A DNA stretch of 4,898 nt from a virus (IMGVR_UViG_2534681628_000018), one strand, 5' to 3'; positions 1 through 4,898 are shown, counted from the stretch's first letter. The notes: generated by a model from the sequence alone, not told the origin. Numbers and translations: made by a program.

Positions 1-1
1 T

Positions 2-169
2 CGCGATGTACGCACAATCGTTGAGCTGGGAAAAACAATCGACTTTGATGCCAGAATCGTTATTCCATTTGAAGGCGTGCGCCACAATGCGCTGGATGAT
101 GCCCGTCACCAGGCAAAATACGTTTCAGCAATCTGGCAAAAACTGATCCCGAATCCGGTTGATTTTTAA
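2..169 (+). CDS. C-terminal fragment of a DnaQ-like (DEDDh) 3'-5' exonuclease; 5' end lies outside the window
   Basis: Frame is open from the window edge to TAA at 167-169 and translates to RDVRTIVELGKTIDFDARIVIPFEGVRHNALDDARHQAKYVSAIWQKLIPNPVDF. The segment H-N-A-L-D-D-A...Y fits the Exo III motif (H-x-A-x-x-D-A) of DnaQ/RNase T/ExoX-type exonucleases. Not in the ORF track because it contains no start codon. Only 55 residues are visible. Confidence 0.45.
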   Translation, partial: RDVRTIVELGKTIDFDARIVIPFEGVRHNALDDARHQAKYVSAIWQKLIPNPVDF

Positions 170-235
170 TGTTCAACCCTGATCGCCGTCCCCGAATTAT
201 ATTGGCGGCGGTCATGCTGTAAGGCACGTGACCAC

Positions 236-487
236 ATGTACGAATTAACTCTATCGCCAGCAGAGATTCAAGAGATCACGAAATACGAGCGATACACAAA
301 ACAGCAACACCAGTTAAGGCTGCACGGTATCCCATTTGTAATCGGTCCTAAAAACGAACCAATAGTTCTTCGCAGGGATATTCCACACGGACTGACTACG
401 ATGCCAAAAGCACCTGAACTGGTTTCCGCTGAACCCGATTTTGAGGCGCTGAACAATGGGAAGACCAAGAAAAAACAAAAAAGATAA
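236..487 (+). CDS. xis: Excisionase (lambda Xis-like recombination directionality factor), 83 aa
   Basis: Small ORF immediately upstream of and overlapping int. The N-terminus MYELTL resembles lambda Xis (MYLTLQEW...), and the basic C-terminal tail NNGKTKKKQKR resembles lambda's ...RNGKKAKS. ATG at 236 is the only start in this frame after the upstream stop at 167-169; AAGG lies about 12 nt upstream. Confidence 0.65.
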   Translation: MYELTLSPAEIQEITKYERYTKQQHQLRLHGIPFVIGPKNEPIVLRRDIPHGLTTMPKAPELVSAEPDFEALNNGKTKKKQKR

Positions 488-1475
488 TGCACTACCACCG
501 CGTGTTAGATCGAATGGTTACAGTTACGTATGGAAACCCGAAGGAAGCACAAGAACTATAGGGCTCGGAAGAGTGCGGGAAACCAGCATAGCTAAAGTCT
601 GGCAAAATTATGAGCTGGAAAAAGCAAAACTCCACAACATAATGACAGTAGCTAAATTATGGCACATGTTTATGGACTCCCCTGCATTTACAGAACTGGC
701 CCCCCGAACCCAAAAAGATTATCGGCAACATCAAAGGGCATTGTTGGCAGTATTCGGAAAAGTGCTTGCTGATAATGTAAAAATTGAACAGGTAAGAATT
801 TTCATGGATAAGCGAGGACTTGAGAGCAAGACCCAGGCAAACCATGAACTGGCAAGTCTGAGCCGTATATACGGATGGGGATACGAGCGTGGGTATGTAA
901 AAAATAATCCATGCAAAGGAGTCAGAAAATTCACACTTAAAGCCCGTACTGTTTACATCACCGATGAACAGTATGCTGCAATATATGCGGAAGCAATTCC
1001 ACAGTTATGTATTGCAATGGAGATATCCTATCTTTGTGCGGCAAGGCTCGGTGATGTACTCGAGCTGAAATGGCAGGATATTATGGATAAAGGGATTTAC
1101 ATTGAGCAAAACAAGACTGGCACTAAACAAATCAAGGAATGGTCTCCGCGATTACGTACGGCGATCCAGTTAGCCCGAAATGTATCTTCCGGCACATGCG
1201 AGTATGTGATCAACACAACCAAAGGCGAGAAGGTAATAGCCAAGACGCTGAACAACTGGTGGAATCAGGCTAAACGTGCAGCCGAGCAAAAAGCCGGCGT
1301 TCCGTTTGGATGCAACTTCCATGACATAAAAGCCAAAGGGATTTCAGATTACGAAGGCAGCAGTCGCGACAAACAAATTTTCAGTGGACACAAAACAGAA
1401 AATCAGGTGTTGATTTACGATCGTAAAACCAAAATCACCCCAACACTGGATTTGCCGCTTGTGGTCAGTAAGTAG
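456..1475 (+). CDS. int: Site-specific tyrosine recombinase, lambda Int family, 339 aa
   Basis: N-terminus MGRPRKNKKDNALPPRVRSNGYSYVWKPEG...GLGRVRE parallels the lambda/HK022 Int arm-binding domain (MGRRRSHERRDLPPNLYIRNNGYY...GLGRDRR). Catalytic-domain landmarks align by eye: AARLGDVLELKWQDI (Arg I), IEQNKTGTK (Lys), FHDIK (box II His), GHK (His), VLIYDRK (Tyr nucleophile). First in-frame ATG after the stop at 450-452; TAG stop at 1473-1475. Confidence 0.92.
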   Translation: MGRPRKNKKDNALPPRVRSNGYSYVWKPEGSTRTIGLGRVRETSIAKVWQNYELEKAKLHNIMTVAKLWHMFMDSPAFTELAPRTQKDYRQHQRALLAVFGKVLADNVKIEQVRIFMDKRGLESKTQANHELASLSRIYGWGYERGYVKNNPCKGVRKFTLKARTVYITDEQYAAIYAEAIPQLCIAMEISYLCAARLGDVLELKWQDIMDKGIYIEQNKTGTKQIKEWSPRLRTAIQLARNVSSGTCEYVINTTKGEKVIAKTLNNWWNQAKRAAEQKAGVPFGCNFHDIKAKGISDYEGSSRDKQIFSGHKTENQVLIYDRKTKITPTLDLPLVVSK

Positions 1476-1480
1476 GCAAT

Positions 1481-1496
1481 CCAGAAAATTTTCTGG
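1481..1496. other. Perfect 16-bp palindrome CCAGAAAATTTTCTGG, 5 nt downstream of the int stop
   Basis: Read directly from the sequence; self-complementary. No T-run follows on either strand, so more likely a protein-binding site or RNA stem than an intrinsic terminator. Confidence 0.3.
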
Positions 1497-1503
1497 CAAA
1501 AAG

Positions 1504-1513
1504 ACTTGGTATA
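1504..1513 (+). repeat. Candidate integrase arm-type site ACTTGGTATA (int-proximal arm)
   Basis: The same 10-mer recurs at 1733-1742 on the other side of the att core, and TTGGTATATT (1506-1515) recurs at 1747-1756. A degenerate copy CTTGGTGTT lies at 1549-1557. Confidence 0.4.
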
Positions 1514-1616
1514 TTAACTCTGAATAGCTCCCTAATATCTTGATTTTTCTTGGTGTTAGGTCTGATTAACTTTTCAGCTATTTTGCGTATTGCACTGATT
1601 TTTCTTTATTTTTCTT

Positions 1617-1676
1617 CGGTCTTGAAAACCGGCGACCCGAAAGGGTTCCAGAGTTCGAATCTCTGCGCTTCCGCCA
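1617..1676 (+). other. att core: 3'-terminal 60 nt of a tRNA-Ser(UGA) gene (serT-type), from the anticodon stem through the CCA end; not a complete tRNA
   Basis: CGGTCTTGAAAACCGGCGACCCGAAAGGGTTCCAGAGTTCGAATCTCTGCGCTTCCGCCA matches the 3' part of E. coli tRNA-Ser(UGA) as I recall it: anticodon loop CUUGAAA, long variable arm, T-arm CAGAG/TTCGAAT/CTCTG, acceptor 3' strand CGCTTCC, discriminator G, CCA. The required 5' acceptor strand GGAAGCG and D-arm are absent from the ~30 nt upstream (1587-1616 is AT-rich and unrelated). Confidence 0.85.
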
Positions 1677-1684
1677 AATAATCA

Positions 1685-1718
1685 AGGGGTTACAAAATGG
1701 TAGCCCCTTTGCTTTTTT
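1685..1718 (+). terminator. Rho-independent terminator directly downstream of the tRNA-Ser fragment; possibly bidirectional
   Basis: Stem AGGGGTTAC (1685-1693) pairs with GTAGCCCCT (1700-1708), 9 bp with one G-U pair, loop AAAATG, followed by TTGCTTTTTT (1709-1718). On the minus strand the same hairpin is followed by a weaker U-rich stretch (TGATTATTTGG), so it could also end the tfa/stf transcript. Confidence 0.6.
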
Positions 1719-1722
1719 GGCT

Positions 1723-1756
1723 CTTGGTATAAACTTGGTATACCAATTGGTATATT
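1723..1756 (+). repeat. Cluster of candidate integrase arm-type sites: three direct TTGGTATA copies at ~11-12 bp spacing plus an embedded 12-bp palindrome
   Basis: CTTGGTATA at 1723-1731 and 1734-1742, ATTGGTATA at 1746-1754; perfect palindrome TACCAATTGGTA at 1741-1752. Helical-repeat spacing and placement 47-80 bp from the core resemble the P'1-P'3 arrangement of lambda attP. Confidence 0.45.
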
Positions 1757-1817
1757 TTCAGTCTTTAATATCTGCGATATTTTTCCCGCGAGCACCTCTT
1801 TTGATGTCTTTGTGGCC

Positions 1818-2402
1818 TCAAGGTTTTTCTGAGCTAACGACCAGTTTCCTGATTGAACCCAAATCCTCCAGATTATTCAGTTCTTCCTTCATCTCCCGCT
1901 GACGTCGATAAATCTCGTCATTGCGATCGAGCTGCGCCTGCGCCATTGCTGCCGCCAGTTCTTCCAGTTCCGGCATTGACAGTTTCACCTGTTGATTATC
2001 GGCATCACCCCATGCAAGGGCGGTTCGTGCCGTATCGGATTTCGCCGCCATTACTACCGGATAAAGACGGGCCATTGAGTCGGGGCCAGCGTTCCAGGTG
2101 CGACCGTTCCATTCAAAGGTGAACGGCAGTGCTTCCTGTTCTGTGCGCCATGCCTCGATTTCCTGCTTTTTGGCATCCTTCGCCGCGGCGATAAGTTCCG
2201 GCGTGACAGTGAAAGGGGCGATTTCGCCCCATTTGCCGTTCTGCAACTCTTCCCAGATGCGCTGGCCTGTCGGTGCGGTATCATCCTGCATGGCGGTATA
2301 CGGGACGAATTCCGTTTCACCTTCAAATAACACCTCGCAGTCAACCGCACCATTTTCAAGATAATGGGCGTTTCTGATGCCCTTTACCGCTCTGATTTTC
2401 AT
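1818..2402 (-). CDS. tfa: Tail fibre assembly / tail fibre chaperone-like protein, 194 aa
   Basis: Begins 13 nt downstream of the stf stop on the same strand, with GGGGAA about 8 nt upstream of its ATG (minus-strand reading TAA-CGGGGAATAAAAC-ATG). Same length as lambda Tfa (194 aa) and shares a central W-N-G-x-x-W segment (FTFEWNGRTWNAG vs lambda EYQKWNGTAWVKD). The C-terminal half is not obviously lambda-Tfa-like, so the assignment rests mainly on synteny. Confidence 0.6.
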   Translation of the reverse strand: MKIRAVKGIRNAHYLENGAVDCEVLFEGETEFVPYTAMQDDTAPTGQRIWEELQNGKWGEIAPFTVTPELIAAAKDAKKQEIEAWRTEQEALPFTFEWNGRTWNAGPDSMARLYPVVMAAKSDTARTALAWGDADNQQVKLSMPELEELAAAMAQAQLDRNDEIYRRQREMKEELNNLEDLGSIRKLVVSSEKP

Positions 2403-2415
2403 GTTTTATTCCCCG

Positions 2416-4898
2416 TTACTCGATGCGCACAAACAGGCAGATACGACCGGTTATTCCTTTAGAGTCCCTGACCCCGGATAGCGCCATATAACGCCCCGGG
2501 AAAGTGTACCCTGTAGCTCCTGCACTCGGTGCGGAATTGTAGGAGCCAACCCCAGCAGAAGATATTAAGCACGAAAGATTAACTCCGCCCAGTTGTGACC
2601 CCTGCACCACATCACCCAGGCCAATATTGATTTCTTTATCCCCGGAAGTTGTTCCGCGATAAACAGCCAGCACTGGAACACCCACTGCCGGGTATTTGAA
2701 ATATGAGCCTGAGCCTGCTGTCCGGGACAGTAAGAACGCCAGCGAATCGCCGTCGTAAATAATGGGGCTTACTGTTGCATTCCAGTTGTTTCCACTCCAG
2801 CGGTAAGTCAGGCGATGAATACTGTGCTCACCTTCGTAATACTGGTTAAAACACAGCAGCGTTTTGAATTTACGCACTGTGTCTGACTCGTCGTTATCAA
2901 AGGGTGACCACATCACATCAATGATGCCGTTAAATTTCGTTGTGCCAGCCAGCAGCATGGAAGAGTCCGCAATACTGACCGCATAACGCCCCGGGGCGGC
3001 CTTTTTCAGCCATTCAACAAAATCGGCCTGCCCGTTAAATGTCAGAGCGTCGGCACTGGTGAATGCCTGACCGAATCCATGCATGCCGGACAGTGCCAGT
3101 CTGCCCGGTGTGCGGTCGCGGATATCGCTCTGGGGTTCCATCGTCGCAGCCGCTTTCAGTTCAAGCTCCGTGCGCATGGCTTCAGGCGTGTTTCGTGCCA
3201 GTAATGAGCGAGCCTTGTTGCTGCATGGAATTGCTTTTGCTTTAAAGTTATCACCAAAATAAAGGAGAGAGTTTTGTCCCACCCCTGCCTTGCTGATACT
3301 GGTTAACGTATCGTTAAGCGGCTGTTTACCTGCCAGTGCATTAGTGACGGTTGTCGCAAAGTTCGGGTCATTGCCCAGTGCCGCTGCCAGCTCGTTCAGC
3401 GTGTCCAGGGCTTCCGGTGATGAGCCAACCAGTGCGGCGAGCAGTTTGCGCACAAACGCCGCATTGGCTATTTCAGTGCCTGCTGCATCATCCTGTGGTG
3501 TTGGCGTGGACGGCGTTCCGGTCAGTGCCGGGCTGTTCAGTGGCGCTCGGGTTTCAATCAGTGCCCGGAGTGAAGCCTCGTTGACTTTCAGGTTTTCCCA
3601 GCCAACCAGATAACCACCTCCGGTAGTCCAGTAGCGATTGTAATAAATATGACCGTTAATACCGTAAAAAATAATGATTTTGGCCACATATGCCGTATCA
3701 TGGCTGATTTGAGGTTCCGGCCAGATAATTTCAACGGTACCCTTGAACAGCACGCCCTGTATTACCGCATTTGTATCTGCATAAACGGCATAGCGTCCGG
3801 GATTTGCCGTTTTTACCCAGCGGAGAAAATCGGCCTCTGTTTTAAACTCGGTCCTGTCGCCGATGAAAAATACTTTCCCGAATCCAAACATGCCGGGAAT
3901 CGCCAGACGGCCTTCGGTGCGGTCGTAAATATTCTCCTGCGCATCCTTCTGTGCTGCATTGCCAAGTTGTGGCGTCAGATTCGTCCAGGTGACCGGGGCG
4001 GAGATATTATCGCCACGAACGGTCATAAGAATCCGTCCGTCTTTTCCAAAAAACAGAACCAGCTTTGTTGCTGTCTGGCTGGTTTTGTCGGCCCGGCCAT
4101 TATCCAGCCAGATAATTTCTGTTATCCCGGTTGTTTCTTCCGTTCGTGTGGCAAAGGTGTAATAGCGTCCCGGGTGCAGGTTGTGAGCGGTTCTGGCTAC
4201 AGTCGCCATATCGCTGGCAATAATTGAACGCGCTCCGGCGTCCGTCATTCCGTAACCATACGCACCGGGAAGCGCAATGCGGCCTTTCGTGCTGTCGTGA
4301 ATGTCTGTCTGAATATCCATTACCGCTGCGCTTTTCAGCTCAAGCTCATTGCGCATAGCTTCCACTGTGGCCTGTGCCAGCAGTGACCGGGCTTTTTCTG
4401 ACAGTGGAGACAGTGAAGCATTTCCGTCCTGATTAAAGCACAGAAGATTATCTGCCCGTTCTTCCAGATTACTGATTGCGGTTAACACGTCACTGAGTGG
4501 CTGTTTACCTGCCAGTGCTTTGGTGACTGTCGTCGCAAAATTCGGGTCATTTCCCAGCGCCGCTGCCAGCTCGTTCAGCGTGTCCAGGGCTTCCGGTGAC
4601 GAGTCAACCAGTGCAGCGAGCAGTTTGCGGACAAATGCCGCGTTCGCTGTTTCCAGACCGGCAGCATCGTCCGGTGGGGTTGGTGTGGTGGGCGTGCCGG
4701 TGAATGCCGGGCTGTCCAGCGGCGCTTTTGTTTTCGTCTCGTCCATGACGGTTTTGACGGCCTTCGGTGTGGCTGCCAGTTCTTCGCTGTCGTTGTCCGT
4801 ATCACTACAGAGTTGCACCAGGCCTTTTTCTGTCGTGGAAGCACTGCTTCCCTTCAGGTCATCAACTATCCGTTGCGCCTCGTCCCTGTGCTGTTTTG
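2416..4898 (-). CDS. stf: Side tail fibre protein (lambda Stf-like), C-terminal ~827 codons; N-terminus lies beyond the window edge
   Basis: The ORF track starts it at a GTG (4818), but the frame carries no stop in the codons from 4896 down to 4819 (...KQHRDEAQRIVDDLKGSSASTTEKGLVQLCSDTDNDSEELAATPKAVK). This continues the match to the conserved lambda Stf segment (...RKGIVQLSSATNSTSETLAATPKAVKVVMDETNRKAPLDSPALTGTP...NTLNELAAALGNDPDFATTMTNALAGKQP). TAA stop at 2416-2418. Confidence 0.9.
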   Translation of the reverse strand, partial: KQHRDEAQRIVDDLKGSSASTTEKGLVQLCSDTDNDSEELAATPKAVKTVMDETKTKAPLDSPAFTGTPTTPTPPDDAAGLETANAAFVRKLLAALVDSSPEALDTLNELAAALGNDPNFATTVTKALAGKQPLSDVLTAISNLEERADNLLCFNQDGNASLSPLSEKARSLLAQATVEAMRNELELKSAAVMDIQTDIHDSTKGRIALPGAYGYGMTDAGARSIIASDMATVARTAHNLHPGRYYTFATRTEETTGITEIIWLDNGRADKTSQTATKLVLFFGKDGRILMTVRGDNISAPVTWTNLTPQLGNAAQKDAQENIYDRTEGRLAIPGMFGFGKVFFIGDRTEFKTEADFLRWVKTANPGRYAVYADTNAVIQGVLFKGTVEIIWPEPQISHDTAYVAKIIIFYGINGHIYYNRYWTTGGGYLVGWENLKVNEASLRALIETRAPLNSPALTGTPSTPTPQDDAAGTEIANAAFVRKLLAALVGSSPEALDTLNELAAALGNDPNFATTVTNALAGKQPLNDTLTSISKAGVGQNSLLYFGDNFKAKAIPCSNKARSLLARNTPEAMRTELELKAAATMEPQSDIRDRTPGRLALSGMHGFGQAFTSADALTFNGQADFVEWLKKAAPGRYAVSIADSSMLLAGTTKFNGIIDVMWSPFDNDESDTVRKFKTLLCFNQYYEGEHSIHRLTYRWSGNNWNATVSPIIYDGDSLAFLLSRTAGSGSYFKYPAVGVPVLAVYRGTTSGDKEINIGLGDVVQGSQLGGVNLSCLISSAGVGSYNSAPSAGATGYTFPGRYMALSGVRDSKGITGRICLFVRIE
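3302..3547. repeat. Intragenic direct repeat, copy A (~246 bp), encoding the second copy of the conserved Stf collar segment
   Basis: Aligns without gaps to 4481-4726 at roughly 80-85% identity by hand count, including a 41-bp perfect match (3380-3420 = 4559-4599, GCCGCTGCCAGCTCGTTCAGCGTGTCCAGGGCTTCCGGTGA). Confidence 0.85.
4481..4726. repeat. Intragenic direct repeat, copy B (~246 bp), encoding the first copy of the conserved Stf collar segment
   Basis: See copy A. The copies lie 1,179 bp apart, an exact multiple of three, so they are in the same reading frame and orientation. Confidence 0.85.

Follow-up and report, generated by a model that had tools for sequence, protein, structure and literature searches.

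A probable attP of a temperate Escherichia phage that carries the 3ʹ part of serT, with strand exchange probably in the anticodon loop

Positions 1476-1758 of the viral DNA analysed here (IMGVR_UViG_2534681628_000018; 4,898 nt, the whole of which we call the window) very probably represent the attP of a temperate Escherichia phage, whose lambda-family integrase recombines with the bacterial serT gene in the anticodon loop. At the centre of this region, window positions 1617-1676 (CGGTCTTGAAAACCGGCGACCCGAAAGGGTTCCAGAGTTCGAATCTCTGCGCTTCCGCCA) are identical in 60 of 60 nucleotides to nt 29-88 of serT, including the CCA, as expected from the preliminary description, which had proposed that the att core is the last 60 nt of a serT-type tRNA-Ser(UGA) gene.

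The serT fragment and its junctions in lysogens

The 60-mer was found at 100% identity in all 5426 of the 5426 complete E. coli genomes (E = 2e-22, 28 Gb searched), where the annotation underlying the match is tRNA-Ser. The median number of copies per genome is one, which is consistent with a single-copy serT gene. In K-12, the 60-mer forms the 3ʹ end of a tRNA-Ser gene of 88 nt with the anticodon TGA, in the order hyaA, serT, yccA; the host locus had thus been predicted correctly. The fragment comprises a partial anticodon stem, the loop, the variable arm, the T arm, the 3ʹ acceptor strand and the CCA. Its elements are as follows (tRNA nt = window position minus 1588; the first two, the T loop and the CCA were assigned by tRNA numbering):

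1617-1620, plus strand: 5ʹ arm of the anticodon stem, 4/5 nt
1621-1627, plus strand: anticodon loop, with the anticodon at tRNA nt 35-37
1649-1665, plus strand: T stem-loop CAGAG-TTCGAAT-CTCTG, a perfect symmetric 5-7-5 element
1654-1660, plus strand: T loop
1674-1676, plus strand: CCA
1617-1681, plus strand: common core of 65 nt, identical in attP, attB, attL and attR (serT nt 29-88 followed by AATAA)

The alignment covers tRNA nt 29-88 only, so that the sequence from the anticodon stem through the CCA is present and the 5ʹ half is absent, as described earlier; in the 28 nt upstream of 1617, alignments revealed no similarity to the 5ʹ part of the tRNA. ARAGORN called neither a partial nor a complete tRNA in the window, and an Rfam search of the window up to E = 1 matched nothing. 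A complete tRNA is thereby excluded, and the tRNA fragment is recognisable by alignment only. An open reading frame of 43 codons at 1550-1681 was rejected as a gene, being a mechanical ORF that crosses the tRNA fragment.

The extent of the common core was taken from a four-way alignment in which the window and K-12 serT were compared with the two junctions of a prophage in E. coli A36. The 60-nt identity block named in the preliminary description is exact for the tRNA part, but the block shared by attP and attB is really 65 nt, since the AATAA after the CCA is common to the phage and the bacterial sites. Beyond it lies a hairpin that is a diverged version of the terminator of serT, with similarity extending to about 1716. 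The earlier remark that 60 nt is long for a core of the lambda family did not hold: the block is long because attP must replace the gene 3ʹ of the crossover, and extended identity blocks are ordinary where an in-gene crossover makes attP supply everything 3ʹ of it (PMC10111431; PMC4383910).

The recombinant junctions expected in lysogens were present in A36, where a prophage of 42 kb occupies serT. Towards hyaA, a complete tRNA-Ser (called by ARAGORN) is followed by sequence like window 1677-1800, then by DUF4376 and the tail-fibre genes. On the other side, the order is exo, DUF4224, int (97.6% identical DNA), the displaced 60-nt fragment, the bacterial downstream sequence and yccA; at this int junction, ARAGORN called no tRNA. 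In the four-way alignment, attL of A36 consists of attB-left, the block and attP-right, and attR of attP-left, the block and attB-right. A prophage of O157:H7 PV15-279, located between serT and yccA, has an Int 96% identical to that of the window and the same displaced fragment and attR. The module occurs in 744 of the 5426 complete E. coli genomes (about 14%), and its copies in phage Evi and in E. coli genomes are about 96-98% identical. In phage Evi (LR597642), the module is contiguous and 96.2% identical over window positions 1-1758, with an Int identity of 98.5%. The module is found in E. albertii as well: in an exact scan of one genome per species, E. albertii NBRC 107761 was the sole match to the left junction. 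It gave no new junction because its contig stops a single base beyond the CCA, where the shared block has just ended. In previous studies, serT was described as the site of prophage CP-933M in O157:H7 EDL933, between tusE (yccK) and tRNA-SerT (PMC5552260), prophages at serT were reported in O121 strains (PMC8767318), and an Stx2f prophage was located at serT in E. albertii (PMC10673567).

Integration joins the bacterial 5ʹ 28 nt of serT to the phage copy of nt 29-88, and the phage-borne predicted terminator then adjoins the rebuilt gene, while the former 3ʹ part of the bacterial gene remains between int and yccA as a dead fragment. Judging from these junctions, insertion at serT rebuilds the gene instead of destroying it. 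To our knowledge, serT exists in a single copy and encodes the only E. coli tRNA reading UCA, and for this reason an exact replacement of the 3ʹ part would be required.

Several sequence changes were noticed around the displaced fragment. In one IMG/VR lysogen (L015), the variable arm of the displaced serT fragment carries a C-to-T change, which is post-integration damage and is uninformative on the crossover. The int-side junction of O157:H7 has an A-to-G change at the first base after the CCA (position 3061 of the sequence L093). Plasmid pZ0117ECO0133-3 (L010, 26,994 bp) carries a frameshift-ridden copy of the segment exo-xis-int-fragment-yccA-tusE-rlmI that is also on the chromosome of the same strain; we rejected it as a separate element, the frameshift-ridden chromosomal copy being most likely an assembly artefact.

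Gene order, the attP region and the integrase

The fragment lies in a non-coding stretch of about 340 nt (1476-1817), 141 nt downstream of the end of int at 1475. The genes around it are:

2-169, plus strand: 3ʹ end of an exonuclease gene that leaves the window at its left edge (PF16473, Rv2179c-like 3ʹ-5ʹ exoribonuclease, E = 1.3e-13)
236-487, plus strand: excisionase (Xis) of 83 aa (DUF4224, E = 1.8e-9; PHROG 1266 'excisionase', E = 6.5e-23)
456-1475, plus strand: tyrosine integrase (Int) of 339 aa (PF00589, 33 bits against a cutoff of 27.1; PHROG 1 and PHROG 7244 'integrase')
1818-2402, minus strand: tail-fibre accessory protein DUF4376 (Pfam E = 1.6e-16; PHROG 1141, E = 7.7e-90)
2416-4898, minus strand: side tail-fibre gene that leaves the window at its right edge (Phage_fiber_2; PHROG 2636, E = 2e-182)

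The early-left operon has the order exo-xis-int, in which the start of int overlaps xis by 32 nt; the full gene homologous to the truncated first one is labelled 'exonuclease' in A36, in E. coli RM11911 and in phage Evi. On the opposite side, the DUF4376 gene is the last late gene before attP, and the A36 homologue of the side tail-fibre gene is annotated as prophage tail fiber. The tail-fibre genes of the window share only about 87% identity with their counterparts in the A36 prophage and are unrelated to what Evi carries there. Within the side tail-fibre gene, we observed a direct repeat of 265 nt (3290-3554 and 4469-4733, 83% identical, 1179 nt apart), and the encoded protein contains the segment ...AAFVRKLLAAL...LNELAAALGNDPNFATTVT... 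twice, which suggests a duplicated fibre module.

The following elements were located in the attP region:

1476-1758, plus strand: whole attP region of about 280 bp, from the int stop codon to the module boundary
1481-1496, no strand assigned: perfect 16-nt palindrome CCAGAAAATTTTCTGG (inverted repeat I2), 6 nt past the int stop codon
1506-1513, plus strand: candidate arm-type Int site TTGGTATA of the P arm, 115 nt before the anticodon loop
1533-1545, minus strand: IHF-consensus match AATCAAGATATTA of the P arm (consensus WATCAANNNNTTR)
1550-1557, plus strand: degenerate arm-like repeat TTGGTGTT of the P arm, a 6/8 match read from the sequence and weak as evidence
1680-1692, plus strand: IHF-consensus match AATCAAGGGGTTA of the Pʹ arm (same consensus)
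1684-1719 (hairpin 1684-1709), plus strand: predicted intrinsic terminator with a 10-bp stem and a T run, from a pattern match
1724-1731, 1735-1742 and 1747-1754, plus strand: three tandem candidate arm-type sites TTGGTATA of the Pʹ arm, from the repeat count
1739-1746, inverted repeat: inverted copy of TTGGTATA that overlaps the Pʹ arm repeats

Five copies of the 8-mer TTGGTATA are present in the window, all of them within 1506-1754, against 0.07 expected. The consensus WATCAANNNNTTR is matched only twice in the window (0.28 expected), and the two matches flank the core. In the P-arm match, the SNPs of O157 and A36 are confined to N positions, and the degenerate repeat TTGGTGTT is unchanged in the window, O157 and A36 copies. 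The right match is found in the phage only, attB having AAGATAAGGGGTTA in its place, which is no match; it arises at the very point where the phage and the bacterial sequences diverge. The terminator, which is the only terminator-like site within 1400-1900, can be aligned with the hairpin that follows serT in K-12, and in A36 it sits after the rebuilt tRNA. We also noticed that the right arm of the phage (1682-1719) is a diverged homologue of the serT terminator region, in comparison to positions 1566-1605 of the sequence L001, which suggests that the right arm of attP may originally have been taken from a bacterial serT locus. The palindrome next to int, which differs by one change in the attR of O157:H7 and by none in that of A36, could be a protein-binding site or a part of the int 3ʹ end. 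With a core, candidate arm-type sites, putative bending sites and an excisionase, the site is an attP of the lambda type, as far as its arm and IHF sites, assigned by motif, indicate.

The right end of attP was set at about 1758 because the near-identity of three copies (the window, phage Evi and the RM11911 chromosome) stops there. They are unrelated beyond this point, the megablast match to Evi also ends at 1758, and the same int-attP module is joined to differing tail-fibre modules. The mosaic boundary (1755-1760) is sharp and lies four bases past the last arm repeat.

An alternative origin of the window has to be considered in this context, namely that it represents an attP-like hybrid junction of two tandem prophages at serT in a bacterial chromosome, rather than part of a free phage or circular genome. 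Such an arrangement exists in RM11911, where a contiguous attP connects two lambdoid prophages, one by its tail-fibre end and the following one by its int end (at about 18877-19160 of L092, chromosome positions 1-50000), which indicates tandem prophages in that strain. Six genomes among the 40 matches listed show the 1-1758/1759 type of match. At most 67% of the window is covered by any one phage record or E. coli genome, and an exact 48-mer across the right module boundary (1758) had no match in IMG/VR, as might be expected of a hybrid. However, both flanks of the A36 prophage match the two sides of the window, as they would for a single phage. We regard the tandem origin as unlikely; a tandem junction would have the same organisation and function as attP, and only the provenance of the window would change.

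Regarding the protein that would act on the attP proposed here, the alignment with lambda Int (PDB 1Z1B, E = 4e-18) pairs Int residues 1-319 with lambda residues 1-340, the identity in tblastn being 24%, and Int also aligns with the catalytic domain of lambda Int in 1AE9, 1P7D and 1Z1B. Residues 1-60 align with the arm-binding region of lambda Int (1-60); since no Pfam arm-domain model was matched at E = 0.01, the assignment of an arm-binding domain relies on this pairwise alignment. Five of the six lambda catalytic residues are present, with R197, K220, H289, H312 and Y321 at the positions of lambda R212, K235, H308, H333 and Y342, and K292 (codon 1329-1331, in the motif FHDIKAKG encoded at 1317-1340) sits at lambda R311. 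Four clade members (42-100% identity) all have the lysine at this Arg-II position, and more than 550 Int relatives in IMG/VR match the motif FHD[LI]KAK. An Arg-to-Lys change at the same position was described in two other predicted tyrosine integrases (PMC12884075, 2026). Because a lysine replaces Arg311 of lambda, we can only infer that Int is active, from the abundance of lysogens and from a free phage.

Position of the strand exchange

The preliminary description had left the crossover point open. We found no polymorphism marking the crossover in the block of the window, Evi, RM11911, A36, O157 or E. albertii, and since the block is identical in every attP, attB, attL and attR examined, the sequence alone cannot map the crossover. 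The relatives of the integrase point, by inference, to the anticodon loop. The element concerned is:

1617-1632, plus strand: anticodon stem-loop CGGT-CTTGAAA-ACCGG, in which putative core-type Int sites flank the presumed strand-exchange region 1621-1627

In the window, identity with the tRNA sets in at nt 29, with 4 nt still to go to the anticodon loop, and is kept as far as the 3ʹ end of the gene. The relatives of the clade have integrases 42-59% identical to that of the window and target serU or leuZ. Klebsiella phage KpF5 (Int 51%) and Salmonella phage S.Typ Adana (49%) carry a serU 3ʹ fragment from tRNA nt 29, as does the IMG/VR contig L090 (59%), serU being tRNA-Ser CGA. These serU-specific fragments begin with CGGT and the anticodon loop. 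Phage mEp390 (42.5%) carries a fragment of tRNA-Leu(UAA), which we take to be leuZ, starting 2 nt before the anticodon loop. The blocks of the clade thus begin 2-4 nt before the anticodon loop across three tRNA targets. Such a sharp common left boundary indicates that the exchange probably takes place there, since the sequence to the left of the crossover is unselected and ends up in the dead fragment.

The spacing of the arm repeats was compared in the same set, with positions counted from the first base of the anticodon loop:

Window and phage Evi: TTGGTATA at -115, +103, +114 and +126
KpF5 and Adana: TGAGAAAA at -114, +104, +114 and +127
L090: TTGGTATA at -115, +104, +115 and +128
mEp390: TTCGCCAT at -115 and at +130 to +161

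The left arm repeat is located at -114/-115 in all relatives, though the repeat words differ. We also notice that L090, which is directed to serU, has the arm word of the window, TTGGTATA, at matching positions; the arm-binding specificity appears to be common to both despite their differing core targets.

From this comparison, we place strand exchange with good confidence at the left end of the block, within the anticodon loop (1621-1627). Alternatively, the same attP could be used with strand exchange in the T loop (1654-1660) or where the T stem meets the acceptor, near the 3ʹ end of the block, and the 30-40 nt of identity on the anticodon side would then be a historical leftover; we consider this alternative improbable. 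The perfect symmetry of the T arm makes it a possible core, and a centre in the T loop would place the right-arm repeats at about +70 to +95, nearer to the spacing in lambda. Sites in the T loop or at the junction are, moreover, established for other integrases (PMC4383910; PMC1762012, Ms6). However, in every attP of the clade the tRNA identity stops 2-4 nt before the anticodon loop, for all three targets, and it is from the anticodon loop that the left arm repeat keeps its fixed distance. In addition, serT and serU, the targets of integrases that are 50-59% identical, have a common anticodon stem-loop (one anticodon base differs) and unrelated T stems.

With the exchange in the anticodon loop, Int monomers would bind the arms of the anticodon stem, CGGT and ACCG, as inverted core-type sites, and the strands would be exchanged across the 7-nt anticodon loop CTTGAAA, while the other 50 or so nt of the block would serve gene replacement only. 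The N-terminal domain of Int may bridge to the TTGGTATA repeats, one at -115 and three at +103 to +126, with IHF bending the arms at the two consensus sites, and the DUF4224 excisionase would direct excision. The opposite reading, a decayed tRNA pseudogene, a chance match or an assembly artefact with no role in integration, has only the absence of a complete tRNA in its favour and practically no chance of being correct, given the 60/60 identity, the position beside int and xis and the conservation in phage Evi and hundreds of genomes, and it is refuted by the recombinant junctions of lysogens in the four-way alignment.

Known systems and relevance

The attP of the window is of an already known kind, a textbook case of the lambda Int mechanism at an anticodon-loop tRNA site. 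The same exo-xis-int-attP module is present in serT prophages of the CP-933M type and in phage Evi; the late genes differ, and the similarity of Evi to the window stops at the boundary given above. Our literature search returned no paper dissecting this attP. The likeness to lambda includes the homology of Int over its full length, the order of tail fibre, attP, int, xis and exo, and an attP of about 280 bp with repeats in both arms (the right one having a tandem of three) and IHF-consensus sites. In contrast to lambda, which uses an intergenic gal-bio site, the target is inside a tRNA gene, and the common core has 65 nt as compared to 15 nt in lambda. The sequence of the arm repeats differs as well, the right-arm repeats (+103 to +126) are further from the putative crossover, a lysine takes the place of Arg311, and the excisionase is a DUF4224 protein.

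A classification of tRNA integration sublocations, reportedly drawn up by Williams in 2002, is said to include an anticodon-loop 'A' class, and classic anticodon-loop sites are those of P22 in thrW and of HP1 in a tRNA-Leu gene. As in the 'A' class, the attP of the window holds the tRNA from the anticodon stem to the 3ʹ end, the gene is regenerated and a 3ʹ fragment is left behind; it differs in that the identity continues 5 nt past the CCA, followed by the phage copy of the terminator, and in that the anticodon-loop crossover is here deduced by comparison. An attP centred on the anticodon is a described class in Islander, with 2083 such islands and 3760 islands with a 3ʹ fragment (PMC4383910).

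Among the closer relatives, KpF5, S.Typ Adana, vB_EcoS-689R5 and mEp390 have integrases 42-55% identical to that of the window, with an invariant HD(L/I)KAKG. These relatives, specific for serU and leuZ, resemble the window in the start of the block, the repeat at -114/-115 and the tandem repeats past the 3ʹ end of the tRNA; they differ in the target (serU CGA or leuZ UAA), in the arm words TGAGAAAA and TTCGCCAT, and in the orientation of the whole attP cassette of arm repeats, tRNA 3ʹ part and terminator, which is inverted with respect to int. In them, int lies beside the rebuilt tRNA, whereas in the orientation of the window it lies beside the displaced fragment. The relative L055 has a 72%-identical Int beside a full serT, which this Int appears to use as its target, with the attP cassette inverted; the inverted-cassette relatives are L007 (2300-2365), L008 (2300-2365), L009 (2330-2400), L055 and L090. 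Directly after int, 11 IMG/VR relatives (L053, L054, L060, L061, L063, L070, L071, L073, L074, L077 and L085) have other genes and no attP, and many further contigs end at the int stop codon. It is a long shot that the inversion is recurrent and tolerated and the lysine mechanistically relevant, making the clade a natural test system. If this were true, the clade could show how the geometry of the arms determines which way recombination runs, regardless of where int lies, and how a tyrosine recombinase works without Arg-II.

The present analysis describes the phage as a temperate Escherichia phage that would lysogenise at serT, between hyaA and yccA. The exact junction sequences are usable for the detection of lysogens, and int and attP together form a compact cassette (about 236-1758) that could be used as a vector for integration at serT. 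The arm geometry over three targets, the inversion of attP and the lysine at Arg-II go slightly past the routine, and the comparative case for an anticodon-loop crossover, together with the spacing of the arm repeats across the serT, serU and leuZ relatives, is a useful refinement. The site is also a clean example of how a replacement 3ʹ end and the phage's own terminator may make integration into a single-copy tRNA gene harmless.
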